A stretch of DNA of 50,098 nt from assembly GCA_010093705.1 (NCBI GenBank), contig MU006089.1, forward strand, positions 1,004,157 through 1,054,254, in the 5' to 3' direction. The notes below the pieces were generated by a model. It was not told where the DNA came from, ran no database searches, and was given only the letters and a program-made list of their open reading frames with translations. Positions 4,959 through 49,068 of this stretch are shown one piece after another (the first letter of the stretch is position 1; each line of letters opens with the position of its first letter). Source of the DNA: Patellaria atrata CBS 101060. Lineage: Eukaryota. A program made the translations under genes and the position numbers.

Positions 4959-6217
4959 TGCTGGATGTTTCGTCGGTTGTCAGTTGTCAGTTCGAGGGAA
5001 CGATGCTCAGCAGAAAGCAGCGCGCTGGGTGTGGATAAACAGGCCTCACCTGGACACGGAGAGGGCGTTCGGTGCGTTATGGAGCAGAGCCGCAGAGCCG
5101 TTCAGTTCGCCATCATCGACGTCTATGATGAGCTACTGGAAAATTCCATCGACGAGAACGGCAGTCGAAGAGAAAGTGGTCCAAGCGAATCCCTGTAGGA
5201 GATCTCGAAAACTTGGTGTGCTTAAAGAACATGCGCGTCAGGTTAAGATCGTCATCATACATGATACGTACATGGTGTAACAATACGGTTCCGTGTCGAA
5301 ACTAGCACAACAGCAAGGAAATGTGCAAAAAACTTGCTGTGCACGTTATGCCTGCTGTGGCTACCCGTGTACAGCGTGTAGCAAATTCTTTTCTACCGGC
5401 GCTGGACCGACGGTACACGGTAAATGCCACCGCGTGGCCGGCATGAGGCAATATATTACAGGAACCCAAATATAGACGCTTTGGGACTGCCGACGAGAAT
5501 CACGTTACATGGGGGGACTACTGGGTGATGCTGCCAAAAGCCTGTAGGTCTGCAAGAAAAACTGCAATATAATCAAGGGAAGCCCTGAGCAGCACTGAAG
5601 CCGAGTGGAATTCGGGACGAAAGAGCTGGGTAGAGTGGATACAATTCATCAGGGAGAGCCCGTTTCCACATGCGGTATGCCGGGATGCCATCAGACATAT
5701 TAAAAGGGTAATATTCGAAGAGATTTCTAACGGCAAGTTATGGAAAGGGCAGGTTGGTATTATGGAAAAATGCTCGTATGAGCATGTATATCCGCCTGTG
5801 TGGCATCGATCTACGTCGCTAAAAGATGTGCGCCATGGGGCTAGGGGAACCCGTCGTGCGTGGCGTCAGCTGGTAAGATCCGTGGTCCCTGAGCTAATCT
5901 CGAGTTCAATTTTGTGGGGAGAAATTATTGGCTTAGATACTCCAAGCAGGCCCACCCAGCGTGCATCAAGTTGGGACTATTGGTTAAGGGGTAAGGGCAT
6001 GGGAAAAAAAATACTTTTTTGACAATTTGACAGGCAAGCGTAGGCTGCACCGCTGCTGCAAGCACCACAGGCTATGGATCTCTCTGAAACACAAAACCCT
6101 TTTTGGGGCGTTTGAGGTCGCCAGTTGTCGCTCTCCCGGGAAGCCGGCTGGAAGGCGCCATGTCTTTTGGCTGATTCGTCTCGACGACTCTGGCACTTTG
6201 GACCTCGCCGTTGTATC

Positions 6218-6260
6218 CCTGGACCTTGCCTGGACCTTGCCTGAACCTTGCCTGCACTTC
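6218..6260. repeat. 11-bp tandem repeat (CCTGGACCTTG x ~4, degenerating) in the ABC/NRPS divergent intergenic region
   Basis: CCTGGACCTTG CCTGGACCTTG CCTGAACCTTG CCTGCACTTC read directly from 6218. Confidence 0.85.
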
Positions 6261-6945
6261 TCTTAGACTTTCCCTGGATCCACCCTTCATGCTTCTCGGG
6301 AACCCATTTGACAGTTTTGTACCTTCTCACAGCTTCTTAACACCTTTTACACTGCTGGCCGCCCTCGATGTTGCGGCCACTCAAGGCGCCGTGCGGAGTG
6401 CGGGGAGATCTGCGCCGGCTTTGCTCTCTCTTCGCACCAACGAGATCCCGGACATCCCCTCCCGTCCCCTTGTCGGCGCCACCCGGTCGGGTCGTTATGA
6501 ATAACTTGCCATCCGCCCAATAATGGTATTGTGATAGACCACTAGTCGACAATACAAACCCCCTAACGCCGCGAAGGGCAAAGAAGGATCAATGCTATCG
6601 AAATTCCATCGACGCTTCGCTGTCCATCAATAGCGGGAATGCCCCCACCACATACACCACATTCACACACTACTGCGGCTATGAATCCTGTCAATCTTCT
6701 GATTCCCTGTAGCAGCTCAGGGGCGGTTAGAGACTTAGAGTTCTGCTCATCGTGATCATCATGACGCTCATCTACCGCATCGGGTAGTCGAACCTGTTTG
6801 GACTATGATCAAACTGTCATACCAAGCCACACCGCTTTCCTTCTATCCTATCCTCTATCTCTCCTTTCCGTTAGTCCCCTCAGTAGTCCCCTACGATCGT
6901 TTTCTAGGGCAAAGGGATCGACCCTTGGACCCCTCACATCTTTTG

Positions 6946-6972
6946 TTCTTCTTCTTCTTCTTCTTCTTCTTC
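6946..6972. repeat. (TTC)9 microsatellite in a pyrimidine-rich tract
   Basis: Nine perfect TTC units. Confidence 0.95.
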
Positions 6973-8775
6973 TCCCTGATCTACACGCCTTAACAACCTT
7001 ATTTCAAGTCACTATTACATGGTGATTTCGACTGAGTTACACAGCTAACGATTTACTAGTCCTATAGAACTTTTCTCAATACACCACTATTATTCGACTG
7101 CAACGTTTTCTGTCAGATCGTCCCTGCTGAAGGCCGCGATCCCCTCAGATAAATAAAGGGATTCATTGGTTTATGCAGCTTAAGTCATCGCTTGCCCATG
7201 CGGCCGCTATTTTGGCTGGCACGATCTTCGCATGGGTTTTCCAAGACTTCAGCCTCAGTATCCTTGCTCTGGCGCATGCTGAATTGACCTCGTATATGTC
7301 GATGCACACGGACCTGACATGCAAATTCTGCCTTTGGACCTGTCGTACAGCACAGTACCTCCCCGAAGTGTCACACTTGGCCGCTTCATCCGCTTGGAAG
7401 TCTCTACTACTGTGCTGTCAGCAAAGCAGCCGATGCTCGCGATATTCCCAATCGGTATGCCATCAATCCATTATTCTGCAAACCCACCCACGTTGATGCT
7501 CTTCGCCGTTTCGTGGAACCACGAAACGACGTTCAACATCTTTTGGGATTTGGAACTTGTGCATTATTTACACTTTTCTGTAATGTGCTCGCCCCGAGCC
7601 AAGTTTCAGTGGCAGTGGGGCCAAGTACCGGTGGGTCAAGTTAACTACCAGAGTACCTCGAGCTCAGGACTGCTCAGTTACTTTGGTATAGTACTTTGGG
7701 CAAGCGCTACCCACTCTCGAAATGATTCTTTTGACCGCAATCATCCCGCACCATTATACTGGTATTTATCCTTATACGTCATCAAAATTTATTCGGTTGT
7801 TCGTTTGGCCAAGGGAAAACTCTGATCTGAAAGCCTTTCTTCATGTTTTCGAACCCCACACCCTGGCTTCGGACTTTCCCATACTCGTCTTAATTTGAGA
7901 CTACATTCAACCGATTGAGTCTGCACAACGGGACGTTACACTAACATCTGACTCTACGATTGCGATGGTCGTTTTGACTTCGCGGCAACCTTCTAGCGTG
8001 GCAACGCTTCGATGGAAGCTTGCACAGAAAGAAAGATGCATCTTCCCTGAAAGAGTAGCAATAGTGTCCATAGCGCCGGTCTAACAAACACGTCTCCCCC
8101 GGACTTTCATTCCGCCGAAATTTGGAATTCGACGTAATTGTTAAAAATAATGACGATCAAGCTGAAGGGACTATTGGAAACTTGTAAATTGTTTTCAATG
8201 ACAATATATTTTCAGCCGATAATCGTGCCTGTAAACCTGGAGGACGGTACTACTGTATTCTCCCAATTCAGGCCTTAATCAACTTAGTCACGGTCTATCT
8301 GTTGGTATGATTCGAGTTTATTCGAACTGCTGGATAAGGGTTAGATTAATGATCGGCTTCTGTGCATATCCAGTTATCCACCACGGCCAGAGATTCCCGA
8401 TCAAGCCAGTTGCGATACTGGCGACTTTCCAAAATGCAACCCCTTGCCGCTGTGACTTCGAGGTGCAATGCCGGCAGGGCGTCTCTATATTTCTTACTTT
8501 GCTTGAATTCAATACCTGGGACTGCTGGACGCCACCCTGCAGGCACATCTTTACCAGATGAGTTCGAATACGCCACATCTCCTTTGGTCACGTAATCGAG
8601 CAAAGCTTCCTTGGATCGTGATCCCCTGTATCAATATTTTCGTCTGGTACGTGCGTATGGCTGGTGAACGATCATCTGCATACCTGTTCCCAAGTCACAT
8701 TATCCGAATACGGATATGTTTCGACCTCATGCCCTGTGTCGTCAATGGCTGATCTTAACAATCTGCAGAGCCAGC

Positions 8776-8832
8776 ATGTCCGAGGATGTGGTTGTTGTTC
8801 CACCTGGAGGCGATAGTGAACCAGTAGTGTGA
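8776..8832 (+). promoter_or_regulatory. Candidate upstream ORF (MSEDVVVVPPGGDSEPVV*) in the putative NRPS 5' leader
   Basis: ATG at 8776 and TGA at 8830-8832. It lies 7 nt after a branch/acceptor-like GCTGATCTTAAC...CTGCAG (8768) and before a GTATGA donor-like site (8848). Confidence 0.3.
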
Positions 8833-9142
8833 TAGTGTGTTGCTGTTGTATGAATAGATCGCGTTCCGGTCAACCGGCTTGCTGTGGGTTCTAAACAAGT
8901 TTTGATTGCGAGTTATTTCGTAAAAAAGGTGTAGAGATCTATTATCTCAAAACCAAAACACCGTCTTCCAACAGTCGAGAGCACTCGTACTACCAATACA
9001 GGAATCTTCCTGAGATCGTGAGATTGTCCATGGCCTGATAGCTCACTACAGCAACTAAACGCGTATCTAGGTTATTCTTCTGTTCGATTCCTCGACTCTC
9101 TCTTTCCATCCCTACGAGATAAAAGTTTTACCATAAAACATA

Positions 9143-12100
9143 ATGTCTCAAACAATCATTAACTCAAACGGTGACGCTCAAAGCTATTGGAAAGACGTGT
9201 TGGCAAGTATGGAACCTTGCAACTTTCCCCCCTTAGATGGAACCACGGAGGGACCGACTCGGTCGATGTCTCTAAAGGTGGACTTGAGTTGTGCGGCAAA
9301 GCTGGAAGAGCTTGCCGCAAAGGACGAGCACGAGTTGGCCAACGCTCTCCTCAGCGGCTGGGCTTTGGCAATTCGCTGCTATACCGGTCTCGAAAACGTC
9401 TGTTTCGAGTACCAGGAGATCGGGGAGGATGCTACTAATGTATCAGCGCTGAGGTTGAGGTTGGAACAGACCATGACCTTGAGCGCGTTGACGGACTGTG
9501 CAGCTCGGGCCCGAAACGATGGAAATGCTCATGCGGTTGAGAGTGCATCTCGCATGCCTCGTATGGATGCGTACAATACCGCATTTACCTATAAGAGTGC
9601 TAAAGCTGCGTCTGCCCGTGAAGCAAAAGTGGGATTGTCGCAAACCGGGGACAAATCGGTCAGTGCTCTTTTCCCTCTTCCAATCGAGAAAGAGTAACTT
9701 TAACACAATTTATAGACCAAACTTAGACTGCAAACTAAGGTCACCCAGCAACGGGTGACCGTTTTTCTCGAATGGGACAGCTCCTTCCTGTCAGCAGAGC
9801 AGGCCGCGAACGTCGCGCGGACGTTCGATGCTGCTCTCACTGATCTGTTGGAGCACCCAGAATCCTCAATCGCCTCCATTGACTGCGTGGGTGGAAGCAG
9901 CAGGAGGCAGATGTTAAAATGGAATAGCGAGCCTTTGGTGGAGGTTCGAAGATGCGTGCATGAGATCTTCAGAGAGCGGGCCGTGTCGCAACCGAATGCG
10001 GAAGCGATAAGCGCATGGGATGGTAGCTTCACCTATCGTGAACTCGACCAGGTCGCAACACGACTTGCTCAACAACTTAGAGAATTGGGAGTCGGCCCTG
10101 AGGTCTTCGTCCCTCTTGTATTCGACAAGTCAAAATGGAACGTCGTCGCCATGTTGGCGACAATGTACGCTGGTGGCGCATTCGTCCCTTTGGATCCCGC
10201 CAGCCCACTGTCCCGGCTCCAGGAGCTTGCAGGCAGCGTCAACGCCACGGTACTACTGTGTTCTCGTCAACATCGAGACAATGTTGCTACAGTAGCCCAA
10301 ATCGTTTTCCCTGTGGACCAGGAAGCCGTTAACCAGCTTCCTGCGGCTCCAGAAACCACCTTCGACTTTGCGACCTGTGATAATGCGGCCTATCTTATCT
10401 TCACCAGTGGCTCAACTGGTATGCCTAAGTCCACTGTTCTCACCCATTCTGCGTTCTGCTCGAGTTCAATGGCCCATGGTCGCGCCCAGTTACAAGATTC
10501 TCCTGAGACTAGGATCCTACAATTTGCTGCCCATACTTTTGATGCAAGTTTAGTCGAGATCCTGACCCCTTTGCTCCACGGAGGATGTTGCTGTATTCCA
10601 AGCGAAAGCGATCGTCTTAACGACATCGAAAACTTCATCAACAACCATAAAGTCAATTGGGCTGTGCTAACACCCTCGTTTGTCGAATTCTTAAACCCTT
10701 CCGCAGTACCAGGAATCAAGACATTAGTCTTAGCCGGAGAAGCCATGGCCGAACACCATATCAGGACCTGGACAGAAGCCGGTGTTCGACTAGTCAACGG
10801 ATATGGTCCTAGTGAATGTGCTGTCTGCTCCGTTGCTAACAATAACGTTACCCTGAAGACTGGCCCGAAGAATATTGGTCACCCCGTCGGTGTGCACTGT
10901 TGGGTTGTGGATCCAGAGGATGTCGACCGTCTAGTACCTATCGGTTGTATCGGAGAGCTTATTATTGAGGGACACACGCTTTCTCGTGGATACCTCAACG
11001 ACAGCGCAAAGACAGCTGAGGCCTTCATCCAGAATCCCGCATGGGCAACAGCGTCTGCTGACGGTCGCCCGAGAAGGATGTACCGAACCGGTGATCTGGT
11101 CCGCTACAGCTCGAACGGATCGATCTATTTTGTAGGAAGAAAAGACACCCAGGTGAAGCTCCACGGGCAGAGAATCGAGCTTGGTGAGATTGAACATCAT
11201 CTGAACGCAGACGATGATACCAGCTATGGCCTCGTATTGCTTCCTAAGCAAGGATTTTATAAGGAGCGCCTTGTCTCGGTATTATCCTTGAAGCTCACTT
11301 CGGTCAACGATGGTACCCCCCTTCGATTGCTGGAAGGTCCGCAAATGACTGAAGCTGCCTCAACTATAGAAGGAATCCGTGCTCGCCTCTTGCAACGACT
11401 CCCAGAGTATATGGTCCCCACTACATTTCTAGCTGTTGAGGCCATGCCTTTCCTACCGTCCGGAAAGCTAGATCGCAAGAAGATAAGCAACTGGCTCGCG
11501 CAATTGACAGATGAAGTGTATAGACAAGTGCATGAGCCTATGGATGAAGATGAGTTCTCTGCCACCCCTGCAAATGATACGGAGAGTACTATCCGCCTTG
11601 TTTGGGGACAAGTGCTCAATCTCCCACTTGAACAAGTGAAGCTAGACCGATCATTCTTGAGCCACTCCGGAGATTCCATCACTGCGTTGTCCTGTAAAGC
11701 TCAATGTCAGAAGCGAGGTATCACTCTTCAAGTCCAGGATATACTAAAGAGCAAATCAATCCGAGAACTCGCCCGCCGAGCAAAGGCAACAAAATCTCCT
11801 TCTTTCATTCAAGAGGACGTCGAAGAGCCATTCGACCTTTCCCCCATCCAGAAATTGTTCTTCAGTATGCCAGATCAAGGTCGCACGCATTTCAACCAGA
11901 GTTTCTTCCTGAAAACGACTCGCAAGCTCAAGGAAGAAAGGCTCAGCCGAGCCCTCGAGACACTCCTTAGTGTCCACTCTATGCTGCGAGCCAGATTTTC
12001 CAAGTCTGGCCCGCAAGGACAGTGGCAACAGCGTGTGACAAATGACATTGCGGGATCTTACAGACTCCGAACATATGCAGTTGCTTCGGTAGACGAGGCC

Positions 12101-15100
12101 TCGTCTGCAATTGAGAAGAGCCAACAGTCTCTGAACCCGGAAGTGGGTCCCATCTTTGCTGCCGACCTTATAGAGGTCGATGGTGGAGAACAGCTCCTCT
12201 TCATGACCGGACATCATTTGTGCATTGATCTCGTTAGCTGGAGAGTGATACTAGGAGACCTTGAAGAATTGCTCACGAATACCGACACGTCCGCATCACT
12301 ATCGAAACCAATGCCTTTCCAGGCTTGGAGCAAGCAACAAGCCGAGCACGCCAGATCTCTTTCCCTGAGTAGAGTCCTCCCTGTCGACGACGTTCCTGCA
12401 GGAGACGGTGTATACTGGGGTATGGACGGAGTTCCTAATCTGTACGGAGATGTGCTCCGCCAAGGCTTCGAGCTCGATAGCTCAACAACTTCGAAGCTCA
12501 TGAGCGACTGCCATCAAGCTCTACGCACTGAAACTGTTGACTTACTTCTATCAGCACTTATTCATGGATTTGCACAGACATTCACGGATAGGGATGTCGC
12601 TCCTATCTACAACGAAGGCCACGGCCGTGAGATCTGGAATTCAGATATCGACTTGAGCAGAACAGTAGGTTGGTTCACCACCATGTATCCGCTATACGTG
12701 CCGGGAGCGACTTCTAGTGATATTATCGACATCGTAAAGGGAGTAAAAGACTTCCGTAAACGCCTCCTCGGTAACGGTCGCCCGTACTTCGCTAGTCGCC
12801 TTCTCACGCCTGCTGGTGACGAGAAATTCCATCACCATTGGCCTCTAGAACTTACATTTAATTACCTTGGTCAATACCAGCAACTGGAGCGCCAGGATGC
12901 TTTGTTGCGTCCTGTCGAAGAAATGGCTGGTGAGGCTCGCGGTGCAGGTGGAACCGCAGATGTCGGCCACTTGACTCCTCGTTTCGGGCTTTTCGAAATC
13001 TCAGCTGTCATTGCCGCTGGCAAGCTTCGATTCTCATTCACATTCAATCGCCACATGAAACATCAACAGGAGATCTACAATTGGGTTTCGACAGTTGAGG
13101 ATTCGCTCAAAGTGATCTCACAAAGACTCGTCCAAATGCAACCTGAGCCGACTCTGAGCGATTACCCATTGATGTCTCTGAACCGTAGCAGCCTCCAGGA
13201 GCTAATCACTCAACGCCTTCCTGCCATAGGAATCCGCAATATGAGCGAGATTGAAGATATTTACCCTTGCTCCGCGATGCAGCAAGGTCTATTGCTGAGT
13301 CAGACGAAGGACGCTGGATACTATGCTGTTCAAATTACTTGCGAAGCTAAACATCAGCAAGGTAGCATGGTAAATGCTGGTAAACTCACCGCAGCTTGGC
13401 AAAAGGTAGTCAATCGCCATGCGTTACTTCGCACTGTATTCCTAAACGACAGTAACAATGGTATGTATGACCAGGTTGTCTTCCGTACGATTGATGCCCC
13501 AATCGTTCAACTGGAATCCAACAACACCGAGCACGCATTACAGATGCTTAAGGAACAGCGAACTCTGCATGAAAATGCAGGTACTGTGCCCCATCGCTTC
13601 ACTGTTTGCCGTGTAGGAAACCAACAGACCTTCTTCAAATTGGAGATGGGCCATACTATCATGGATGGAACATCTATGTCGGTTCTACTGCGTGACCTGA
13701 AACTAGCATATGAGGATAAACTCGAAGCTTCAGGACCCCTTTACAGCGAATACATCGCATACTTGCAACAACAACCCTTCGAGGAAGGTATCGAGTATTG
13801 GAAATCGTATTTGCGAGATGTTGAACCATGCCAATTTCCGATTCTCAACGACGGTCTTCCCAAACCCCGCCAGCTTCACTCGATTCGCGTCGGCTTCAAG
13901 AACATGTCAGCGCTGCAGCAGATTTGTCAGAAGTATGGTGTTACCTTATCTAATGCTTTCCATACGGCCTGGGCCCTCACTTTGAGGTCTTATACAGGTT
14001 CCGATGGAACATGCTTTGGATATCTCATCTCCGGTCGTGACATTCCAATCGACGGTATTGAGGAGGCGGTCGGACCTTTTATCAATATGCTCGTATGCAG
14101 GGTGGATATGCCCAGCAAATCTAGCATCGTCGATGTCATGTCCCAGGTGCAAAAGGACTACACCGACAGCATTCCACACCGTTATACCTCGCTAGCTGAA
14201 GTTCAGCATGCGTTGAAGTTGGGTGGAACAGCCTTGTTCAACACCGCGCTCTCATATCGACGCCTCCCGCCTGATACGGATGTTGTTGAACCTGGTGTTT
14301 CCTTCACCGAATGCGCCCCCACTTTTGATCCCACTGAATATGATGTTTCTATTAACGTTGAAGTAGCGGACCACGATGCATACATTGACCTCGATTACTA
14401 TGTTGACTACCTGTCTGATGGCCAAGCATCAAATGTTGCAAACACATTTGTTCAGGCTTTGGAGAATATTATTCAGCAAGCAGACACCAGAATCGAAAAA
14501 CTCGACGGCTTGAGCGAAAACGACCGACACCAGATCATGAGCTGGAACAGCCAGATGCCGCCGACGATCAATAAATGTGTTCACGAAATTGTTCAGGAGC
14601 GCGTCTTAGAACGCCCCCAAGCGTCAGCTGTCGAAGGCTGGGACGCCAAATTTACGTATGTTGAACTTAATAAGAACGCTAACCTACTTGCACAGTACTT
14701 GATGAACCTTGGAGTCGGCGCGGAAACTTTAGTGCCTGCATGCTTCGATAAATCCGCTTATACCGTTGTTGCGATGCTCGCGATAATGAAAGCTGGTGGT
14801 GTTGTCGTAAGTTAGATCATCGGAGCAGTGTTCTCCACGAAATGCAGGACTTGTTAGTTAACGTCTTTACTTCAATAGGTCCCATTAGGTGCAAACCACC
14901 CTAAATCTGCACTGGAAGATCGTGTTCAAGACACTCAGGCCAGTATCGTATTGGCATCCACAGAACGTGCACCTATCTTTGATGACGTAGTACCGACTGT
15001 GGTTGCTGTCAATGCTGAGCTCTTGAAGGAACTCGCGGCCGAATACGGCCTTGTGGAGAATCCTGCTCGAAATGTCGTACCTGAAAATGGATGCTTTATC

Positions 15101-18100
15101 ATCTTCACCTCAGGAAGTACCGGAAAACCGAAAGGCGTCGTTCTTGAGCACCGTGCCCTTGCAACTAGCCACAATGCTCACGGAACTGCTCTTGGCCTCG
15201 GACCACACTCAAGGGTTCTGCAATTCGCTTCTCACACATTTGACAACAGTATCGAAGAGATGTTCACTACTCTCACGCGAGGTGGAACTGTATGTGTTCC
15301 GTCAGAGCATGACCGCATGAATGATTTGGCTGGAGTTATTACTCGTCTCAACTGCAATTTCATGGATCTAACTCCCACCGTGGCGAACACCCTTGTACCA
15401 TCAGATGTGCCCTCTATCAAGAGCATGGCTCTTGGTGGTGAAGCGATCACCAAACGCAATGCGGACACTTGGGGCAAAGCAGTTCAATTGCACGGACAAT
15501 ATGGCCCTTCGGAATGCTCCATCAACTGCGTCTGGAACGGAGACATTGGAGCATCACCGGAACCAACTAATATTGGACGTGCCGTTGGCAGCGTCTCTTG
15601 GGTGGTCCATCCTCGCGATCATAACCTACTCATGCCAGTCGGAGCTGCTGGTGAACTACTCGTAGAAGGTCCTATCCTTGCTAGGGGTTATCTTAACAAT
15701 CCAGAGAAGACAGCAGAGGTTTTCATCGAAAATCCTCTTTGGGCATCTGCTTCAAAAGACTTCTCTGTCCGCCGATTCTACAAGACTGGAGATTTAGTCC
15801 GATATAACTCCGATGGTACGCTCACGTACCTAGGCCGAAAAGATACACAAGTTAAGCTCCACGGTCAGCGTATCGAGCTAGGTGAGATCGAGCACAACGT
15901 CAAGCAGAGTCTCACTCTTGATGGAGAAGTTGGTGTGGAGCTCGTTAAGATCAACGGTGTCAAGGCACTCGCAGCGTTCTTGTGCCTACCAGACGCAGTT
16001 GATAGCGAGGTTGAATCCATTCCTGGTCTCTTGCCAATGACAGATTCTTTACGATCTATTGTCGGTGGACTGGAGCAAGCATTGAGCGATCTTTTGCCAA
16101 CGTACATGATTCCGTCACTCTTCATACCCGTTGCCGAAATGCCTTTGACCACTTCTGGAAAGCTAGACCGTCGTGCCTTGCGATTGATTGCAGAGGGTCT
16201 TTCGGAACAACAGTCAGCAATGTACAGACTTGCAGGTGGCAGTGGCCGAGCACCGACGACCGATATGGAAATTGCACTCCAGGAGCTTTGGGGTAGCGTC
16301 TTGCCAGTAGATGCGAAATCTATTGGTGCTGATGATGGTTTCTTCAGGCTTGGTGGTGACTCTATTGCCGCAATTTCTCTCGTCACAGCAGCGAGGAAGA
16401 AGGGTATCAGTCTCACAGTTGCTACTATTTTCCAGAAACCCAAGTTGTCAGATATGGCGAATCACTGCACATTCAATTCTGCGCAAGAAATTAACAAGAC
16501 AGAGGCCCCGGCCCAGCCTTTCGCGCTCTTAAACGCTACCGCTAGTTCTCTCGATGATATCATCCACGAGCTTGCTCAGGAATGCAACATCGAAACTCAC
16601 GACGTTCAAGATATATACCCTTGCTCCCCTCTGCAAGCAGGTCTTGTCGCTCTCTCCAACAAGCAAGATGGCGCATATGTTGCACAAAATACCTACCGAC
16701 TTCCTTCTGACATTGACATCGAACGGTTTCAGGAGGCATGGCGACGAGTTGCACAGTCAGAAGCGATCCTGCGCACTAGGGTTGTGCACACAAAGAGGAC
16801 TGGCTTCGTCCAAGTCGTCATTCGTGAAGATATCCACTGGAATACCGCCAGCACCTTTTATGATCTATCCGAAGACAGCAACAAGTTGCAACTAGGCAAT
16901 GGTGGACGCCTAACTAACTTCGCTTTGGTAGGTCCATCTCAGGGTGCTTATCATTTCGTCTGGACTATCCACCATGCCTTGTATGACGGATGGTGTATCG
17001 ATTTGATGCTCCAGAAGGTGAAGCAGTGTTACGAACATTCCAAGATCACCCAATCCGCTCCTTATTCGAGCTTTATTAGGCACCTTACAGCTCTCGACAA
17101 TGATGCATCAGACGACTTCTGGATTTCGAAACTATCAGAATCTTCCTCTCGACAGTTCCCGCAATTGCCGAGTCCGGCATATGCAGTTTCACCAACAAGC
17201 TTACTTACGCACACTATGCTGGTACCACAGAAGCCCAGTCCTGATGTTACATTACCTTCTGCCATCAGAGCTGCTTGGGCTCTTATCGTTGCTGCTTACT
17301 CTGGTTCAGACGATGTTCTTTTCGGCGAGATATTGACCGGCAGAGACGCTCAAGTCGACGGAATCGAAAGTATAGTTGGACCCACTTTGACAACTATTCC
17401 TGCTCGATTCCAGGTGAATCGTGATTTGAACGTAGAAGATTTTCTCCGAGAGGTTCAGAATTCCTCAGTGGAAGCAATGCCATATCAGTTTGCAGGCCTT
17501 CAACATATCAAGCAATTGGAAAGGAAGTCATCATCACTTTCTTGCGAATTCCAGAATTTACTGGCGATCAACAGCAGCGAAGATGAAATTGACAACTTCT
17601 GGGTACCTGAAGCAGCTGATAGCGCCATGGCTCACTTCTACACCTACCCCCTTACCATTGCTTGTACGATCGGCAAGAAAAACCTGTCATTCGAAGCCCA
17701 TTTCGATCAAGACATCATCCCGAACTGGCATGTGCAGCGTTTGTTGTACCAATTCCAATCAATGCTTGAGCTACTCACTGGATCAGCAGCCAAGCAGGTT
17801 AAGGTAGGTCAAATGGCACTACTAAGCTCACAGGACAAGAACACCATCAGAAATTGGAATTCAAGCCTCCCGCAGGCCGTTACAAGATGCATCCACGAGA
17901 CAATCCACGATATTACTTTGTCCAAGCCGGACTCTCCCGCCATCGCTTCCTGGGATGGCAGTTATACATACAGCCAATTGGATCGCCGCTCCACGTCATT
18001 GGCTCGCCGTTTGGTTCTGGAAGGTATACGCCCAGGCGATATTGTTCCCCTTTGCTTCGAAAAGTCTGCACTTACAATCGTCGCAATGCTCGCTGTCTTG

Positions 18101-21100
18101 AAAACAGGAGCCGCATTCACATCTTTAGATCCTAATGCTCCTATTGCTCGTCTACGAGTCATTGTGGAGGAAGCGGAATCACGAATGATAGTATGCTCTC
18201 CACAACAAACTGAACTCTGCAAGAATATCATGAACAAAGTCTATACCTATGCTCACGAATCCTCGGATGAGTGTGAGACTTCCCGTACAAGTTTGCCCGC
18301 GGTCAATTGCGAAAACACAGCTTATGCGATCTTTACCAGTGGTTCCACTGGAACACCTAAAGGAGTACTCGTTAGCCACAAAGCGTTCTGCACTGGAGCA
18401 GCTTGGCACGGTCCGGCCTTACGCATTGGATCAGACACTCGCGCGCTTCAATTCGCCTCCTATACCTTTGACGCCAGTCTTTTGGAAATCTTCACTACTC
18501 TGTCTGTCGGTGGCTGTGTCTGTGTTCCAGATGACACCCGAAGGATGAATGATATAACCGGTGTGATCAATGAGCTCCAAGCAAATTGGTCACTCTTGAC
18601 CCCATCATTTGCCCAGTTGATTCAACCTTCTACTGTACCGACTCTTCGAACTCTCGCACTTGGTGGAGAGGCAATGTCTCGCGCCCATATCACCACCTGG
18701 TCCACCGAGGTGCATCTTATTAATGCTTACGGTCCTAGTGAAACTGCTGTAGTTGCGACTGCGAACTCTCACGTAACCTCTACAACCGATCCCGCAAACA
18801 TGGGTCGGGCCGTGGGTGGTCGCTCCTGGGTTGTTGATCCACTGAATCATGATCGACTAATGCCTATCGGCGCAATTGGAGAACTCTGTGTTGAGGGTCC
18901 TATTCTAGCATCTGGGTATCTTCACAACGAGAAGAAGACTGCAGAAGTATTCATTCAAGACCCGAAATGGACTAATGAACTTATTTCTGGGGAAAATGGA
19001 AATGCTCGGGTTAAAATCTATAAGACTGGTGATCTTGTTAAGTACGATGCAGACGGATCCCTACTTTACTTGGGACGAAAGGACACACAAGTCAAATTAC
19101 ACGGCCAAAGACTTGAGCTCGGCGACATTGAGCATCATTTGCGAACCGATTCCCTGATCAAACATGCCCTCGCTGCAATCCCCACGACTGGTGTATGTGC
19201 CAAACGCATGGTAGCCGTACTTTCATTGCAAGAGATTGCTTCTTCTAGCAGTGATTCAGGATTACTTCACCTCGTTGCCCGCGAAGCAGCAGCCTTCAAT
19301 CTTCCCGAAATCCGCGACAGAATTAGCGGCAAGCTTCCGGCTTATATGGTACCATCAATCTGGGCTGTCGTGCAGGAGCTTCCTCTCCTTCCTTCTGGCA
19401 AACTTGATCGCCGCCAAATTATCACATGGGTCGAACAGATGAGTCAAGAAGTGTATCAACAGATTACAGAGGTCGCTGTTTCCAACGATGCCACAAATTC
19501 TATGTCTGGAGCAAGCGATATCGAGCTCCGTCTTCAGAAGATTTGGGCTTCTGTTCTAAATCTGCCACAGGATCAGATCGCATTGAATGTACCATTCCTT
19601 CACCTTGGTGGCGATTCAATCAGCTCTTACGACGTTGTTGCTCAAGCACGTGCAGAAAATATTGGTCTTACCGTACAGGATGTCATCCGCTCCAAGTCTA
19701 TCTCCGCACTTGCGCAAGTTGTCACTTTACCCGAGGAAGTTTCTTACCAGAGCGAAAAGGTTGGACAGGCGTTCGATTTGTCTCCTATTCAGAAACTTTT
19801 CTTTGAGTGCGTCGGAGAACGCTTCAACCACTTCAACCAGAGCTTGCTACTCCGTATCTCCAGATCAACTGGGCATCTTGAAATCAGCCGTGCCGTTGAA
19901 AGTATTATCCGTGCACATTCGATGTTACGTGCGCGATTCCATAGAACCATTACAGGAGTGTGGCAACAAAGCATTAGCGATGATGTTACAGGCTCGTTCC
20001 AATTTCAGTCCCATTCAATCGGCCATAGCTCTCAGGAAATGTACGACCTGATCGAGAAGAGCCAAAAGAGCTTGAACGTTGAGCAAGGTCCGCTGTTTGC
20101 GGTTGACCTGTTCACAATCAACGGCGACGAATACCAAGTTATGTCCCTCATTGCTCACCATCTTTCTATCGACGTCGTCTCATGGCGCATCATTCTACGT
20201 GACCTGGAAGACCTCCTCCAATCCGACTCCGCCAAGCTCTCTGCTTCAGTACCATTTCAGATCTGGTCTGATGCTCAGGCCGAGAAGGCTCAGAAAGATG
20301 TGGTCACTTCGGGATTACCTATTCAGGAGTCAATTCATTCTGATTTTAGCTACTGGGCTATGGATGAGGAGCCGAACGTTCATGGAGACGTTATTGTTGA
20401 TGAGTTCGAGCTCGATATGTCGATGACAACGTCCATTCTCAATTCAGGCACATTGATAGCCGAACCTGTGGATATCTTCATTGCAAGTTTGATTCATTCC
20501 TTTAAGAAAGTCTTTACCGACCGCACAGCCCCTGCAATCTTCAATGAGGGTCATGGTCGCGAGCCCTGGAACTCGATGGATCTCTCGAGAACTATCGGCT
20601 GGTTTACGACTCTTTGTCCAATTTATCTACCTTCTTCAGCTAAGACTGATAGAATTGTGGATATCGTCCGATGGGTCAAAGACTTCAGGTCCCGGACGCC
20701 AGGAAAGGGCAGACAATATTTTGCCAGCCGTATGCTCACAGACGCAGGCAAAGAGGCTTACACTTCCCACTGGCCCATGGAAATCACGTTCAATTATCTT
20801 GGACAACTAACACAAATGGATAAACAAGATTCTCTCCTCCGATCTTACCTTCCAGAGGATAGTACCGCAGCCGCCAAAGCTGCTCTTGATGCTGACCAGG
20901 ACATGCCCAGGTTCTCTTTGTTTGATATTTCTGCTGCAGTCATGGATGGGCAACTCAAGTTCTCGTTCGGCTACAATCGCAACATGAGGCGCCTCCCTGC
21001 GATTGCAAATTGGGTGAAGGAGTGCAAGATCTCCCTCTCCGATTTCGCAACTCAGTTAGTGATGTTGAAGCCCGAACCAACGTTAAGCGACTACCCCCTA

Positions 21101-24100
21101 CTCCCGCTCAGTTTCGATGGTATTTCCAAAGTGCATTCCGCTATCAGTGAGATCGGAATAACTTCTCTTGAAGATATTGAAGATGTGTATCCTTCTTCAC
21201 CAATGCAACAAGGCTTACTCCTCAGTCAAATTAAGAATGCCGAGTTGTACTCTTACCACTGCAACTTCGAAATCCGCTCTACACAACCCGGGACATCTGT
21301 GGATATTGGGCGTTTTGCTCAGGCATGGCAAGCTGTGGTAGCGCGACATCCTGCGCTCAGAACCTGTTTCGCCAGTGCCACATTTGATGGAGCTCAGGAT
21401 CAGATTGTGCTCAGAAAGGCCACACCAAGGATCTCCTGGTTAGAAAGTTCGGATGAGAATGCCATCGTCCTTCTAAATGAGCAGCAACCAATCAACTGCC
21501 GCGATCTCCAACCACCTCATCGTATGATTATCTGCAAGACCGATTCTCAGCGTGTATTCTGCAGGCTTGAAATCAGTCACGCCATTTCCGACGGAACTTC
21601 CATGCCAATCCTATTGCGGGATATTATGAAAGCATACAGCGGAACTCTTCCCCACGACAAGTCTGGGCCTCGCTATAGCGATTACATTGCTTACCTACAG
21701 AGCATATCTAAGGAAGCTGACATCAACTACTGGAAGACTTATCTTACTGACATTGAGCCATGCAACTTCCCAGCCATCAATGACAAGGCAGAAGGCGCTG
21801 GAGAGTTGAAATCGGTGACCGTAAATCTTGGAGACAACATTGATCTCCAGAGCTTCTGTACAAAACATGGTCTCACAGTATCCAACGTGCTGCAATTTGC
21901 TTGGGCCCTTGTTCTGCGACACTATACCGGATCGAACGAAATCTGTTTTGGTTATTTGACCTCTGGTCGTGATGTTCCAGTAGCTGGAATCCAAGAAGCT
22001 ATTGGAGCATTCATCAACATGCTTATTTGCCGTGTCAACTTCAACCCAGAGGTTTCAGTGTCTGACACTCTAGATAAGATCCAGTCAGACTTTGTCGCTA
22101 GCATGTCCCACCAGACCTGTTCTCTCGCCGATGTTCAACACGAGTTGGGTCTGTCCGGTACCGCGTTATTCAATACGGCCTACTCTTTCCAGAAGCGCGT
22201 AGGTGGTCAGGATTCGAAATCTGATGCCATTGATTTCGACGTACTCGATGCTCATGATCCAAGTGAGTATAGCGTAACGGTCAATGTTGAACAGATGGAG
22301 ACTGGTACCGAAGTCAGCTTCAGCTACTGGTCGACTCACCTATCAGAAACCCAAGCGGAGAACTTAGCAAACACTTTCCACCACATCACGAATACCATAA
22401 CCCAACGCCATGTTGGTACCAGAGCCATTAAGGAACTGGACTGCTTCGGAAAGCACGGCAAGCAACAAGTGCTAAGCTGGAACAAGACGCTCCCTGCAAA
22501 GGTCAACAAGTGCGTGCACCAGGCTATCAAAGAACAAGCACGTCTCCGCCCAGCATCGGCCCAGGCGATCTGCGCTTGGGATGTTGAATTGACCTTTACT
22601 GAACTCGAAGAATCTGCAATCCGCCTCGCCCATCACCTTCGCAGCTTGGGCGTTCGCCCTGGTGTTTTCGTTCCGCTGTGTTTCGAGAAGACTGGTTACG
22701 CCATTGTCTCTATGATGGCCGTCAATTTGGCCGGTGGTGCATTTGTTCCCCTCGACTTCTCGCATCCTGTTAGTCGCTTGAAGAATTTAATCGATAACGT
22801 CAAGGCCAGTGCAGTGCTTTGCTCTCCAAAGCACGCCGAGAAAGTGTCGTCTGCAGCACCTCTAGCTGTTCCGGTTGATGGAGCTTTCATTGCAAGCTTA
22901 CCAACAGTTTCTTCATCGCTACCGGAGGTCGATCCAGATAGTCCTTCATATGTCATCTTCACCTCCGGTACAACCGGAATGCCCAAAGGAACAGTTATTG
23001 AGCATGCAGCGTTCTGTACCAGCGCTACAGAGCATGCCAGATCTATGTATATGGACTCATCGTCTCGTGTATTCCAGTTTGCCTCTTACACTTTCGATGC
23101 AAGCGTCATGGAAATCTTGAGTACACTTATTGTTGGTGGCTGCGTTTGCGTACCAAGCGAAGAGGAGCGTATGAACGACATCCCAGGAGCTATGGTCAAG
23201 AGGAATGTGAACTGGACCTTATTGACACCCTCTGTTGCAAACACACTCAAGCCCGAATCGGTTCCTACCCTGAAAGTCTTAGTCACTGGAGGTGAAGCCA
23301 TGTCATCTAGCCATATCTCCAAGTGGAAAAATCACTGCAGCATCATCAACGCCTACGGACCAAGTGAGTGCTCCGTCATTGCTACTACTAGCACGAAGGT
23401 CGACATCAACGGCTCTTTGGTGGACAGCGATACGTCGAACATTGGTCCTGCGGTCGGTGGTCGCTGCTGGGTTGTGGATCCCCAGAATCACAACCAGCTT
23501 GTCCCAGTTGGTGCAGTCGGAGAACTTGTTGTTGAAGGATGGATCGTGGCTCGAGAATACCTCAACGATCCTGCTAAAACAGCGGCGGCGTTTATTAGCA
23601 ACACGACATGGGGCCCTGAGATGGGAATCGCAAAGAATCAACGCATGTACAAGACGGGCGATCTAGTGAGATATAACTCTCGCGGACAGTTTGCCTTTAT
23701 TTCGCGCAAGGATACCCAGATCAAGTTGAACGGCCAGCGTATCGAGCTCGGCGAAATCGAGCACAACATCAAAGCGTGTCTACCAGACACATGCCAATCC
23801 GCAGTGGAGCTCGTCGTACCACAAGGAGGTCGCAGTGGTGCCAAAGCACTTGCTGTTTTCTACACCACGGAGAGCGCCAGAAGAGGCAGCACTCACAACG
23901 GCGACAAGTCTGCCCTATTCGCCTCTGACATGTCTCCTTCTGATGAACTCCTCCTACCTATGTCCGACGGTGCCCGTCTCATTGCGAAGAACCTCGAGAA
24001 CTCTCTCGGAGGCGTGCTACCCGCATACATGATTCCCTCTATTTATGTACCAGTCGCTAAGCTCCCTTGGACCAGTTCCGGCAAACTTGACAGAAACCGA

Positions 24101-27100
24101 CTCAAGACCATGGTACAGGCATTGGCTAAAGAGACAATGGCACCATACAGACTCGCCAATGTCGCCTCCAAATCTAAGAAGGCTCCAATGTCCGAACTCG
24201 AGACTAAACTAGCCAAACTTTGGGAGATCATTCTCCAACTGAAACCAGGATCGGTTGCCAACGATGACAATTTCTTCAGACTATCTGGTGACAGTGTTGC
24301 AGCCATGCGTCTTGTTGCAGCTGCTCGCACTGAAGGTCTTGTCCTAACGGTGATCAACATCTTCCGCAATCCCAAGCTCGCTGAGATGGCTAGTGCATGC
24401 ACCATCTTGGAAGACGATGATTTGACTGTTCTCAAACCTTTCGATCTACTTCTAAAGGGCGAATCCAAGGAAGCCACGATCGCGGATCTGGCTTCAGAGT
24501 GTCAAACCAAACCCGAAGCCTTGGAGGACGCTTACCCAGTCAGTGCACTTCAGGAGGGTCTCATAACCCTGACTATCAAGCAACCCGGAGCGTACGTGGC
24601 TCGGAATGTCTTCCGCCTTCCCTTACATGTTGATATCAATCGCTTCAAAGCAGCCTGGCACAAGGTTGTGGCGGAAGTTGATATCCTTCGTACTCGCATA
24701 GTCAACACGAAAGCTGGTTCCTTCATTCAAGTAGTAATGAAGGAGGACCCAATCACATGGAATTCTGCCCCAGATTATGACTCTGTGTTGGCTCAACCAA
24801 GCCATCTTCCTTCAAGGAATGGTGGTCAATTACAGCGTTTCACCATCACGGAAATTGACACCGCAGCTGAGGCAAGATACTTCATCTGGGAGATTCATCA
24901 CGCGTTGTACGACGGTTGGAGCATGCCTTTAGTTCTCAAGAGGGTTGAATCCGCGTACTTTAATACAGCGTCAAACGTGCCAAAAGCTCCTTACGCTCAA
25001 TTCATCAAGTATCTCCGCCTAACCGATCAGAAGGCTTCTGATACTTTCTGGAAGAACAAGCTAGCAGACTCATCCTCCATGCAATTCCCCGAGCTGCCTC
25101 ATTCTTCTGCCGAGCGCACTCACGATGGCCGCGTTTTCTCCCACAGTGCACCAATCAAGATTACTAGTGGCGACATCACAATGCCGACAGTCATCCGCGC
25201 TGCATGGACTTTCCTCATAGCTGCCTACACAGGCGCTGACGACGTAGTCTTCGGTGAAACCTTGACCGGTAGAGATGTCTCAGTCCCTGGCATCACCGAT
25301 ATTGTCGGTCCAACGCTTACAACAGTACCAACAAGACTTCAGCTCGATCGCAGCATTACTGTCAAGGAATTCTTGAACAGAATCCAAGAAGCATCCACGG
25401 CGGCAATTCCCTACCAGCATGCTGGTCTGCAGCATATCAAGAGACTGAACGATGATACTGCAAGGGCATGTGACTTCCAGAATCTTCTCGTCATCCAAAC
25501 TGCAGAAGGAAGGATGAACGATGGATTATGGGATCCTCAAAGCAGCGGTGTTGGCTCGAACTTCTTCACCATGCCACTCGTTGTGGAATGCAGAGCCGGT
25601 CCAAGCGATGTTGAACTAGACATCCATCATGACGCAAATATTCTGTCCCCATGGCAAGCAGAGAGACTTGCCTTCCAATTTGAAACTGTTCTCTCCCAGA
25701 TCAATTCCTCCCTACTTGAAGGTGGTAATCGCTTGGTCGCAGATATCAGCTCCTTCAGCCCACAAGATCAAGAGATGATCAGCAGCTGGAATGCCCATGA
25801 ACCACAACCACTCAACCTCACAATCCACGGATTGTTCAAACGGATTGCTCGATCTCAACCCGAAGCGGAGGCTATCTGTGCATGGGATATGAATTTGACA
25901 TACAGGGAGCTCGAGGACCGAGCATCAGCATTGGCTTCCTGCCTTGTTGAGCTAGGTGTCGGACGCGGCGTTCTAGTACCTGTTTGTGTTGATAAATCCG
26001 CAGTCGGAATCGTATCATACCTAGCCGTACTCATGGCTAACGGGACCTTTGTGCCATTAGATCCAAGCCATCCCATCGAACGACATATCCAAGTCTTCAA
26101 GGATACTGAAGCAACCATTCTTATCTGCTCACCTCAATACCAAGAACGATACGCTAGCAGTGTTAAGGCTATAATTGTTGCCAACAAGGAAACCATGATG
26201 AGCCTACCGCCAGCAACATCCATTCTGGAGGAGGCCACCGCAGCGACGCCTGACGATACTGCTTACGGAATCTACACTTCCGGTTCCACTGGTAATCCGA
26301 AGGCTGTTATGGTCTCTCATAACGCATTTGTTACCAGTTCCGAGGCTTACAGGACAGCAATGCTGATGGAACCGAATTCACGAGTCTTCCAGTTCGCTTC
26401 GTACACTTTCGATGTCGGTCTTATGGAAGTCTTCACAACGCTAACATATGGAGGATGCGTCTGCTCTCCCAGTGAAGATGAGAGGACCAGGAACGTTGGT
26501 GGAGCGCTTGCCTCATTAGCCTGCACATGGGCTTTCTTGACTCCATCAGTGGCTAGCATCATTGATCCGTCTGCTGTTCCATCTATGAGAGTCCTTGTTA
26601 CTGGTGGCGAAGCAATGTCCATCGAGACTGTTACGATGTGGGCAGACAAGCTTACACTCGTGAACGGTTATGGCCCAACTGAGGCCGCTGTTATTGCTGT
26701 GGTCAACAATCGCGTCTCCGAGCAGAAGGATCCTTCCAACATTGGTAAAGGTCATGGAACTTGCATTGCCTGGATCACCGACGCCAACAACCATGACCGA
26801 CTTGCTCCTGTCGGCTGTATCGGTGAGTTAATCCTTGAAGGCCCAATTCTTGCGAAGGAATATCTCAACAACCCGGAGAAGACCGCATCATCATTCATTG
26901 ATGCACCTTCTTGGCAATCAAACTTCGCAAGGCGAGATGGTCAGCAACGTCGCATTTATAAAACCGGTGATCTTGTCAAGTACAACGAAGATGGTAGCTT
27001 TATGTTCCTCGGCCGCAAGGATAACCAAGTGAAACTCAACGGCCAACGTCTTGAACTTGGAGAAATTGAACATCGTCTTGAGATTTCTGCAGATGTCCGC

Positions 27101-33383: not shown

Positions 33384-33501
33384 TTAGTCATACTCATATT
33401 TCAAGCGGGGTAGGTGCTGAAAACAGCATATACTCCGAAATCGGTGAGGTGGGGGTCAAACTGAACTATACAAACAGTGACGAACAGACGCGAAGAGTCA
33501 T
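33384..33501. promoter_or_regulatory. Candidate Gcn4/CpcA (bZIP) sites upstream of SER1
   Basis: TTAGTCA at 33384-33390 and GAGTCAT at 33495-33501 (reverse complement ATGACTC), 100-210 bp upstream of an amino-acid biosynthetic gene. The motifs are short and could occur by chance. Confidence 0.4.
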
Positions 33502-33596
33502 GCACCCAGAAGAAACTTACACCATATATAGTTTTCATACTTTCACAAACCCCCCAATTTCTTCTCAAATACTCCAATTCTCGCTCAGCACCAACC

Positions 33597-39694: not shown

Positions 39695-40174
39695 ACTTTT
39701 CTTTATCTTTTGCATTTATTCAGCGGCTACAGGAGCATTATACCCGTTCTTAACCAATATTAGAAGACTATGTATTCTTGAGAATTGATGGAAAATCGAA
39801 CATTTGAATCCCATCCACCCCTTGAAATGTTTTTGACAACCCATCAAGTAACGAAGATATCCTCAGTTCTTTTAGCACTATGAACGCAGAAGTCAAATTG
39901 AACCATCAAATTTGTTATCATGTTAAATTTAGAACATTTCAGTTAGTTATCCAGTCCATTTTTAGGTATACTCGTAAGGTAGTCTTGAAATATTCGCAGT
40001 CAAAAGGTTGAGGTAGCCCACCATGCAGTCTACGATAGACTAGTGAAATTTCCCCACCATTCAATGCTAGGTTCCTTGTCTTAATATTTTTTTGCCTCTC
40101 TCTTAGAACACTTTGGAACCTCCAATTGATCTCTCATCTGCAAATGATCTTACATAGAGCTCTCCTCTAATCTG

Positions 40175-48807: not shown

Positions 48808-49068
48808 GGTGATATTCCCTAGATTTTATTTGGCGAGAGAGTCAAGCTATAGCTTAAGTACGAGGTCGGTATCTTTCGAGCGCATGAGGTTGAATATCTT
48901 CTTGGCGCGTCGTGATTGAAGTATGAACCTCGGCTGGTAGTCCGTTAAGGGTCTTGTTCAGGCTGTGCACGGTTTCAAAGCGTGCACGGTCGCCCACCAA
49001 AATTTAGTTCTCAAAATACACGTATCCGGAGAATAATAAGGACTACTTTTTACTCCACCACCACCAAT

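Follow-up and report, generated by a model that had tools for sequence, protein, structure and literature searches.

The window analyzed here is a 50,098-nucleotide stretch of Patellaria atrata CBS 101060 (assembly GCA_010093705.1, contig MU006089.1, positions 1,004,157 to 1,054,254 of the forward strand). It harbors a large nonribosomal peptide synthetase (NRPS) gene whose second adenylation (A) domain, A2, is the subject of this report. A2 has a polar substrate pocket with two acidic residues. Its code is conserved among relatives, the A2-type domains form a single clade, the catalytic motifs are intact, and the domain follows an epimerization (E) and a condensation (C) domain. The gene lies on the + strand (9143-32998, as are all features below unless stated otherwise) and comprises four exons (9143-9658, 9716-14806, 14879-30247, and 30299-32998) that were joined by frame analysis across three short GT...AG introns. 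The splice product of 7,891 amino acids (aa) is a letter-for-letter match to P0124, which is titled [quoted passage not shown].

Pfam matches to AMP-binding, PP-binding, and Condensation run all along the protein, with AMP-binding in each A-containing piece. Together with a motif scan they give the domain order C-remnant, A1-T-E, C-A2-T, C-A3-T-E, C-A4-T, C-A5-T-E, C-T-CT, and T-like tail (T, carrier domain; CT, terminal condensation-like domain). A2 takes up aa 1769-2339 (14504-16288, hmmsearch envelope and Pfam AMP-binding) and is split within its core motif A2 by a 72-base intron (14807-14878, GTAAGT...AATAG), the splicing of which is confirmed by the identity with P0124. The adjoining carrier domain T2, which would carry the A2 substrate, is recognized by Pfam and by the LGGDSI phosphopantetheine site in its sequence (16349-16366). 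The epimerization motifs (HHxxxD, EGHGRE, RT[VI]GWF, FNYLG) occur only after T1, T3, and T5. In module 1, an HHLCID motif (12212-12229) is followed by EGHGRE, RTVGWF, and FNYLG, and equivalent motifs lie in module 3 (20156-20173) and module 5 (28106-28123). E domains in modules 1, 3, and 5 fit the cyclic D/L peptide that an initial annotation of this DNA had proposed. Since module 1 contains an E domain and module 2 does not, the A2 residue joins after a D-residue and is itself not epimerized. The C-terminal part (26900-32995) consists of Condensation, PP-binding, and Condensation, the last of which carries the SHAQYDG motif of the CT domain (31610-31630; motif scan and Pfam). This is the presumed cyclization domain, a role that is inferred from fungal CT domains such as that described for GLNRPS4 (PMC3672099).

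The specificity code of A2 is DNEDAGQINK, anchored to the phenylalanine-activating domain of GrsA (GrsA-PheA, PDB 1AMU) by solved-structure alignment. The translated segment 15212-15304 (aa 1-27) aligns without gaps to 1amu_A 225-251 and places D, N, and E of its FDNSIEE sequence opposite D235, A236, and W239 of PheA. For the segment 15350-15544, aa 5-59 face 1amu_A 277-331 at equal lengths, and the printed TycA alignment is ungapped, which yields D278, A299, G301, Q322, I330, and N331. In the longer segment 14879-16400, aa 2-434 are aligned with 1amu 118-523, and K428 falls at position 517, provided that the last six residues are gap-free. In the solved-structure search, this longer segment matches LgrA at 5e-100 and 1amu_A at 1.6e-47. 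The pocket stretch from GrsA position 235 to 331 corresponds to 15242-15526, both in the 1AMU alignments and in a MAFFT/hidden Markov model (HMM) alignment. Its codons are D235 (15242-15244), N236 (15245-15247), E239 (15254-15256), D278 (15365-15367), A299 (15428-15430), G301 (15434-15436), Q322 (15497-15499), I330 (15521-15523), and N331 (15524-15526), and K517 follows at 16160-16162. The equivalents of D235 and K517, which bind the α-amino and carboxylate groups of the substrate, are thus both present. The initial annotation had read the same code by manual alignment; the structural anchor keeps E239 and D278 in the pocket, and the interval given there runs exactly from codon 235 to codon 331.

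A2 shares its fold and its core motifs with PheA and aligns with it ungapped over 225-251 and 277-331. The difference lies in the pocket, which is hydrophobic and binds Phe in PheA (code DAWTIAAICK) and polar in A2. The other four A domains of the Patellaria NRPS have the codes DAVVVAGVCK (A1), DALLAGAVVK (A3), DAMLVGAVIK (A4), and DVMFVGGVIK (A5) in the same columns of the MAFFT/HMM alignment. All four equal the earlier readings, and these pockets are hydrophobic. An AlphaFold2 model of the segment 14879-16400, computed with 17 full-length relatives, reached a mean predicted local distance difference test (pLDDT) score of 60.5 and a predicted template modeling score of 0.36. The pLDDT stayed below 50 in the pocket, at residues 116-127 and 208-246 of the segment, and no geometry is readable from the model.

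Relatives were collected with the C-terminal E-C-T-CT region (aa 6140-7891), a query that does not include A2. The best 120 of 705 matching proteins, query included, were listed, and the conservation counts refer to the nearest 119 other proteins, with more distant members outside the count. The five Patellaria domains served as a profile with which all A domains were cut out, and each of these was assigned by its best BLASTP match among the five. All 119 relatives hold exactly one A2-type domain (47-61% identity). Within these domains, position 235 is Asp throughout (119), 236 is Asn in 111, 239 is Glu in 90, Ala in 26, and Gln in 3, 278 is Asp in 111, 301 is Gly in 116, 330 is Ile in 98 and Val in 21, and 331 is Asn in 115. 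The identical code DNEDAGQINK is found in 39 of the 119. The acidic pocket had initially been taken to set this NRPS apart from its family, a view that the counts overturn. A conservation count over another set of 131 domains was dropped because the code itself had served as the selection pattern for them, and the 119-relative count is used in its place. In this pattern-picked set, which is circular for positions 235, 236, 239, 278, 301, 330, and 331, positions 239 and 322 are coupled: E239 occurs with Q322 in 71 domains and A239 with C322 in 27.

The A2-type domain is carried by Glonium, Zopfia, and many Pleosporales (Alternaria, Parastagonospora, Pyrenophora, Plenodomus), by the dermatophytes Trichophyton, Microsporum, Nannizzia, and Arthroderma, and by Talaromyces, Rasamsonia, Chaetomium, Usnea, and many Teloschistales lichens. 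The code also exists in another form, DNAD[ASG]GC[IV]NK, which is found in Helotiales (Cadophora, Chlorociboria, Venustampulla), in Ostropales lichens, and in the order of Fusarium, Hypocreales (Neonectria, Thelonectria, Trichothecium, Stachybotrys). Because these Hypocreales relatives hold an A2-type domain of the same clade with D278 (DNADAGCVNK), the contrast to the Fusarium peptide fusahexin that had been drawn from the acidic pocket is not established. A FastTree phylogeny was computed for 266 A domains from 55 hand-chosen proteins, of which 40 belong to the family and 15, echinocandin-type synthetases among them, do not. It unites the A2-type domains in a single clade of 37 tips with a support of 1.0. 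From Dothideomycetes, Eurotiomycetes, and Lecanoromycetes to Leotiomycetes and Sordariomycetes, the polar doubly acidic pocket is, judged by the codes, a hallmark of the family.

In six tips inside the clade, the acidic pair has been lost (DTQSAGCINK, DPQAAGCINK, DIQVAGCINK, DVADCAAVN-, DVANCALVHK, and DVAN---IYK). They belong to P0285, P0293, and P0333 from Teloschistales lichens and to P0255, P0302, and P0306 from Helotiales and Xylogone, and they are likely recent substrate switches beside relatives that keep DNEDAGQINK. Outside the clade, acids at both 239 and 278 were found in only 24 A domains of a biased sample of 1,589 A domains from 323 fungal NRPSs. A second doubly acidic lineage, with the code DNEDVSSVAK, is located at A5 of P0138 and P0151 (Venustampulla and Amylocarpus; ~7,290 aa, six A domains), which belong to an unrelated NRPS family. 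In relatives of that six-module family from Penicillium and Aspergillus flavus, A5 reads DVEEASTVSK or DVDEVSSVCK. In the tree, this lineage falls into the sister group of the A2-type clade, a grouping with weak support (0.77).

The canonical core motifs of A domains include SGTTGxPKG (A3), FDxS (A4), NxYGPTE (A5), Y[RK]TGD (A7), GRxDxQVKIRGxRIELGEIE (A8), and PxxxxGK (A10). A2 has SGSTGKPKG (A3, the ATP phosphate loop, intact at 15110-15136), FDNS (A4), YKTGD (A7), GRKDTQVKLHGQRIELGEIE (A8), and PLTTSGKLDR (A10, 16142-16171, which contains the K517 equivalent). Two deviations had been pointed out initially, and both are present. Motif A5 reads LHGQYGPSE (15488-15514), with Gly for the usual N321 and with H320, and a Gly codon (14888-14890) replaces Asp in core motif A2 of the domain (VPLG instead of VPLD, within VVVPLGANHP). 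Only the latter is peculiar to this gene: Gly is found in Patellaria alone among the 120 listed orthologous domains, the 119 others having Asp. LHGQYGPSE is usual for the A2-type clade, in which N321 is N in 39 of 119 domains, G in 43, C in 15, A in 8, S in 5, and T in 4, and H320 is present in 73.

The unique D-to-G exchange and the loss of N321 could mean that A2 of Patellaria is inactive or skipped and that the peptide is made without its residue. N321 is replaced in 80 of the 119 listed orthologues, and that change therefore belongs to the clade. The Asp position of VPLD also varies in other modules of the listed relatives, with S in 33 of 112 A5-type and E in 28 of 118 A4-type domains. 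Motifs A3, A4, A7, A8, and A10 are intact, K517 included, and the frame is open across all 7,891 aa. With the remaining motifs of A2 intact and the Asp position variable elsewhere, an inactive A2 is rated as very improbable.

A precedent for the acidic pair is found in A1 of ApnA, the anabaenopeptin synthetase of Planktothrix (PDB 4D4G-4D57). Its genotypes DVEDIGAIEK, DVEDIGAVEK, and DVESIGAIEK are described as activating Arg only, and close variants as also activating Lys and Tyr (PMC5311044, in the text available). The D-x-E-D-x-G pattern that the initial annotation had ascribed to domains for basic substrates is documented by this example. A2 and ApnA A1 share D-x-E-D-x-G-x-I-x-K, that is, six of ten positions (DVEDIGAIEK and DNEDAGQINK), and the Glu at 239 is visible in the alignment to 4d4g_A. 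ApnA A1 differs in being a bacterial starter module with V236, I299, A/G322, and a third acid at E331 instead of N236, A299, Q322, and N331, and it has no phylogenetic relation to A2 beyond the A-domain fold. The six positions are the best match found of A2 to the code of a domain with a basic substrate, below the 8/10 that was taken as the criterion; the Orn code of EcdA A1 agrees at 3/10.

The echinocandin-type synthetases, as described in the text available, activate Orn at A1, Thr or Gln at A5, and a proline-type residue at A6 (PMC10832530). Their codes, extracted in the same columns, are DVMELSSITK or DVCEVSSIVK for A1 (Orn), DAQNIASINK for McfA A5 (Gln), and DNTMITAMSK for A6. EcdA and McfA resemble A2 piecewise, with an acid at 278 in the Orn domain, I330-N331-K517 in the Gln domain, and N236 in A6; unlike A2, they do not combine E239 with D278, and they lie outside the A2-type clade. 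On comparison of the codes, A2 looks like an acidified McfA A5 Gln pocket, with Q239 changed to E, N278 changed to D, and the same I-N-K. Code strings of the A2 type were not found in literature text, such codes usually being placed in tables, figures, and supplements, and no Lys or Orn codes were found in the accessible text of the pyoverdine and pneumocandin papers.

One or more acids at 239, 278, or 331 are a trait of domains with basic substrates, and A2 has two (E239 and D278). In bacteria, codes with D278 are told apart mainly by position 239, where K, Q, or E goes with Glu, Gln, or a basic residue, respectively, which would fit a cation for E239. It is therefore predicted, with moderate confidence, that the substrate of A2 in this NPS4/WARP-type NRPS is one L-amino acid whose side chain is long and polar, most likely a cationic one (Lys before Orn or Arg). 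The cation would be held by E239 at the floor of the pocket and by D278 on its wall. Lys is ranked first because E239 at the floor suits a long chain.

[quoted passage not shown] An E domain in every other module, a terminal C-T-C tridomain without a thioesterase, and an adjacent ABC transporter gene are the three features by which the family is recognized, and all are present. ChNPS4, AbNPS2, FgNRPS4, Pes1, and HcpA, termed WARP NRPSs, likewise have alternate E modules, a C-T-CT end, and a neighboring ABC transporter. The canonical warp cluster consists of the NRPS and an upstream ABC transporter (preprint 10.64898/2026.07.13.738209, as far as its text is available). Among the best 120 of 705 matches, the closest full-length relatives include tetramodular proteins of Pleosporales (Alternaria, Parastagonospora, Pyrenophora) and five-module proteins of Hypocreales (Neonectria, Thelonectria). 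ChNPS4, AbNPS2, FgNRPS4, Pes1, HcpA, and the Apiospora NRPS4 are not among the 120 matches listed. A match of 6,269 aa was suspected to be Pes1 and rejected, as it comes from Myriangium duriaei. In a representative search with the C-terminal exon, no protein of more than 7,982 aa was listed.

The Pleosporales relatives P0308, P0319, P0264, and others (~7,190-7,260 aa) are of the tetramodular ChNPS4 type, which is described by Bushley and Turgeon 2010 (PMC2823734, in the text available). They represent the same line, start with T-E-C-A(DNED...), and do not have an A1. As this T-E module has no A domain, its carrier must be loaded by the A domain of another module. In the Patellaria protein, a weak and partial Condensation match precedes A1 (9173-9406, aa 11-88, E 0.001, profile positions 193-274 of 456), and the N-terminus is a truncated C-domain remnant, not a clean A-T starter. 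At the other end, the T-like tail past the terminal CT (32672-32686, aa 7784-7788, within the last ~250 aa) reads '...SSFYELGGDIMDLARV...' and has Ile at the place of the phosphopantetheine Ser (GGDI instead of GGDS). GGDI is also the form in the consensus of 17 relatives; the tail may be conserved and non-loadable.

The apiosporins, products of a WARP NRPS of Apiospora arundinis, are family products that bear on the prediction for A2, and the preprint cited above is the only relevant paper on them that was found in the literature. Apiosporins A and B are given as cyclo[Leu-D-Leu-Leu-D-Ala/Leu-Leu-D-Tyr-Lys], a 4-imidazolidinone containing the Lys unit (10.64898/2026.07.13.738209, available text). 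As predicted for A2, they contain one L-Lys directly after a D-residue (D-Tyr) in a D/L ring that is otherwise hydrophobic. An L-Lys at this place fits a module that follows an E domain. The Apiospora NRPS4 differs from the Patellaria NRPS in that it has six modules, makes a heptapeptide, and has its Lys assigned to module 6 in the preprint text. The reported ion of apiosporin A, 814.5 [M+H]+, implies an odd number of nitrogens; by our own arithmetic, a ring at the allysine level has 814.507 and a head-to-tail ring with Lys 815.539. This calculation was made from the text of the preprint without its figures or supplements, and the actual structure of apiosporin A may explain the ion.

On the favored reading, the polar residue would be loaded on T2 and then join the D-residue of module 1. 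The chain would be D-X/L-polar/D-hydrophobic/L-hydrophobic/D-hydrophobic, perhaps extended by one residue on the extra C-T pair, and the CT domain would cyclize it. Judging from apiosporin and fusahexin, the polar residue may become part of an acetal-type heterocycle. With its residue masked in this way, the finished peptide would not have to carry a charge. As with other family members, the product would be expected to serve surface hydrophobicity and not antibiosis.

The initial annotation had gone further and proposed a cyclic D/L peptide that would be free, cationic, and amphipathic, unlike fusahexin and fungisporin, and possibly active on membranes or as an antimicrobial. The acidic pocket with its hydrophobic remainder and the alternating E domains agree with such a peptide. 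The same pocket is the norm of the family, however, and antimicrobial data were seen for no family member. Family knock-outs are described as giving wettable colonies, the known role being surface hydrophobicity (10.64898/2026.07.13.738209, available text). The special residues of the family are found in heterocycles, the apiosporin Lys unit being locked in the 4-imidazolidinone and that of fusahexin residing in an N,O-acetal (PMC12340964, available text). Neither a cationic product nor membrane activity is thus supported, and a peptide of this kind is regarded as quite improbable.

Several points weigh against a Lys-type substrate. Fungal specificity codes are poor predictors, and D278 is reportedly also part of bacterial Gln and Glu codes. 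The substrate has been measured for no member of the A2-type clade. E239 is absent from the 26 listed orthologues that have Ala instead, and the Gly of VPLG sets the Patellaria domain apart from all 119 others. N236 points in another direction, since outside the clade 16 of the 22 domains that have it are echinocandin A6 domains for proline-type imino acids (in a biased sample). The link between A2 and Lys is one of position and chemistry, and the preprint authors put Lys in module 6 (10.64898/2026.07.13.738209, available text). The published fusahexin model, as far as its text is available, has L-Leu in module 2 (PMC10967133), which would make the code misleading if module 2 of FgNRPS4 falls in the clade. 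A basic substrate, as first proposed, is plausible from the ApnA precedent and the apiosporin Lys; it is not proven, and neutral polar, amino-aldehyde, and imino-acid substrates compete with it.

The neighborhood of the NRPS gene bears on these competitors. An ABC transporter gene on the - strand (735-4804) is recognized by Pfam from its fragments TMD0 (4127-4804), ABC_tran (2435-3274), and ABC_membrane (735-1529); it is divergent from the NRPS gene and probably cut by the start of the window. The ~4.3 kb between it and the NRPS start (4805-9142) contain only short open reading frames (ORFs), of which 5573-6022 and 7283-7825 have no Pfam match. The two genes presumably share this stretch as a long promoter region; alternatively, it may contain small genes that escaped recognition. 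On the other side, a class-V aminotransferase-like ORF (33465-34847) was considered as a tailoring enzyme and rejected, as its solved-structure match (8.9e-86 to 8i28_A) identifies it as the housekeeping phosphoserine aminotransferase. Further genes, all recognized by Pfam, encode a Yju2-like splicing factor (39077-39694), a formylglycinamide ribonucleotide (FGAR) amidotransferase (40148-44281), MCM7 (45062-47407), and, on the - strand, a Pex2/Pex12-type RING peroxin (47728-48825). The last ORF region of the window contains a run of 440 N (49323-49762), either an assembly gap or masked sequence. No tailoring enzyme, neither an oxidase nor a transaminase of the cluster, is present in the window, and the cluster appears to consist of the NRPS and the ABC transporter only.

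This small cluster is consistent with a neutral polar or non-proteinogenic substrate of A2, namely Gln, glutamate-5-semialdehyde/1-pyrroline-5-carboxylate (P5C), 2-aminoadipate-6-semialdehyde/1-piperideine-6-carboxylate (P6C), or a proline-type imino acid. Its side chain would be hydrogen-bonded by the acidic and amide residues of the pocket, and the acetal heterocycle would form spontaneously, so that no tailoring enzyme would be needed. With no oxidase or transaminase in the cluster and both known special residues at the aldehyde oxidation level, an amino-aldehyde, cyclic imine, or imino acid is a serious rival to Lys, although a neutral or non-proteinogenic substrate is judged rather unlikely on balance. 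Two details of the code agree with it, as N236 is common to A2 and the echinocandin A6 imino-acid domain and I330-N331-K517 to A2 and the McfA A5 Gln code. The apiosporin A ion at 814.5 also agrees better with an allysine-level ring (814.507) than with a Lys ring (815.539). The “Pro” of fusahexin can form from a Glu δ-aldehyde precursor by an acid-promoted diastereoselective cyclization (PMC12340964, available text), and a +H2O analogue is more abundant than fusahexin itself in F. avenaceum (PMC11677700). On the other hand, E239 and D278 are also paired in ApnA A1, which is specific for Arg (PMC5311044, available text), and the apiosporin residue is called lysine in the preprint text. Paired carboxylates are most simply explained by a cationic ligand. 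Moreover, no A domain has been proven to load an amino-aldehyde, the loading of P5C by PerA being a proposal.

The ring of fusahexin has the structure cyclo(D-Ala-L-Leu-D-allo-Thr-L-Pro*-D-Leu-L-Leu). In the Nectriaceae relatives P0325 and P0335, the five codes read DVTLVGCVVK, DNADAGCVNK, DAMLVGAVVK, DAMLVGAVIK, and DIGFVGGIFK. The third and fourth are nearly identical and fit D-Leu/L-Leu better than D-allo-Thr/L-Pro, which would shift the ring by two modules. Read from the codes of these relatives, module 1 would install D-allo-Thr and module 2 the special residue. This order is an allowed permutation that still matches the E domains and contradicts the published one.

A further alternative is that the code misleads and that A2 takes Leu or some other ordinary hydrophobic residue, giving an all-hydrophobic ring. 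The poor predictive power of fungal codes leaves room for it. A review of Fusarium NRPSs assigns D-Ala, L-Leu, D-allo-Thr, and L-Pro to modules 1-4 of NRPS4 (PMC10967133, available text). Four polar pocket residues are, however, strongly conserved over five fungal classes, which argues for polar contacts, and the hydrophobic modules of the same proteins use codes of the DA[MLV]L[VA]GAV[IV]K type. The better fit of the Nectriaceae A3/A4 codes to D-Leu/L-Leu than to Thr/Pro likewise makes the special residue the better candidate for module 2. A Leu-type A2 is thus considered improbable.

Returning to a polar residue at A2, the two forms of the code can be combined with the two known heterocycles. 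We tentatively suggest, as a possibility of lower confidence than the Lys-type substrate itself, that the DN(E/A)D-x-G-x-(I/V)-N-K domain marks one WARP module across Pezizomycotina that would install the heterocycle-forming residue, either of Lys/Orn type or the matching amino-aldehyde.

The NPS4-type synthetases belong to the small number of NRPSs that are conserved throughout filamentous ascomycetes, where they serve surface hydrophobicity and conidial wall integrity and, in some pathogens, virulence. Only three types of product are known, all described as hydrophobic, and a conserved acidic pocket in module 2 is unmentioned in the text of the preprint on the WARP family. Taken by itself, one such pocket in one saprobe is ordinary, a correctly read code whose meaning is still a prediction. 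The interesting part is its family-wide conservation and the possible link to the heterocycles. The conserved polar doubly acidic pocket is a simple sequence marker for the module 2-type domain. From it, the peptides made by ChNPS4, by AbNPS2, and by the enzymes of dermatophytes, Talaromyces, Chaetomium, and lichens are predicted to have one polar position, probably of Lys/Orn type. A connection with the unusual acetal heterocycles of fusahexin and apiosporin can also be tested on this basis. If that link holds, the form with E239 and Q322 (in most Dothideomycetes, Onygenales, Talaromyces, Teloschistales, Chaetomium, and the Patellaria gene) would install a six-carbon Lys-/allysine-level unit as in apiosporin, and the A239/C322 form (Hypocreales, Helotiales, Ostropales) a five-carbon unit, the oxidized “Pro” of fusahexin. 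Fusahexin would then be assembled in an order shifted by two, with D-allo-Thr from module 1, the special residue from module 2, D-Leu/L-Leu from modules 3 and 4, and D-Ala from module 5. The “hydrophobic” surface peptides of the family would generally hold one masked polar residue that rigidifies the ring.

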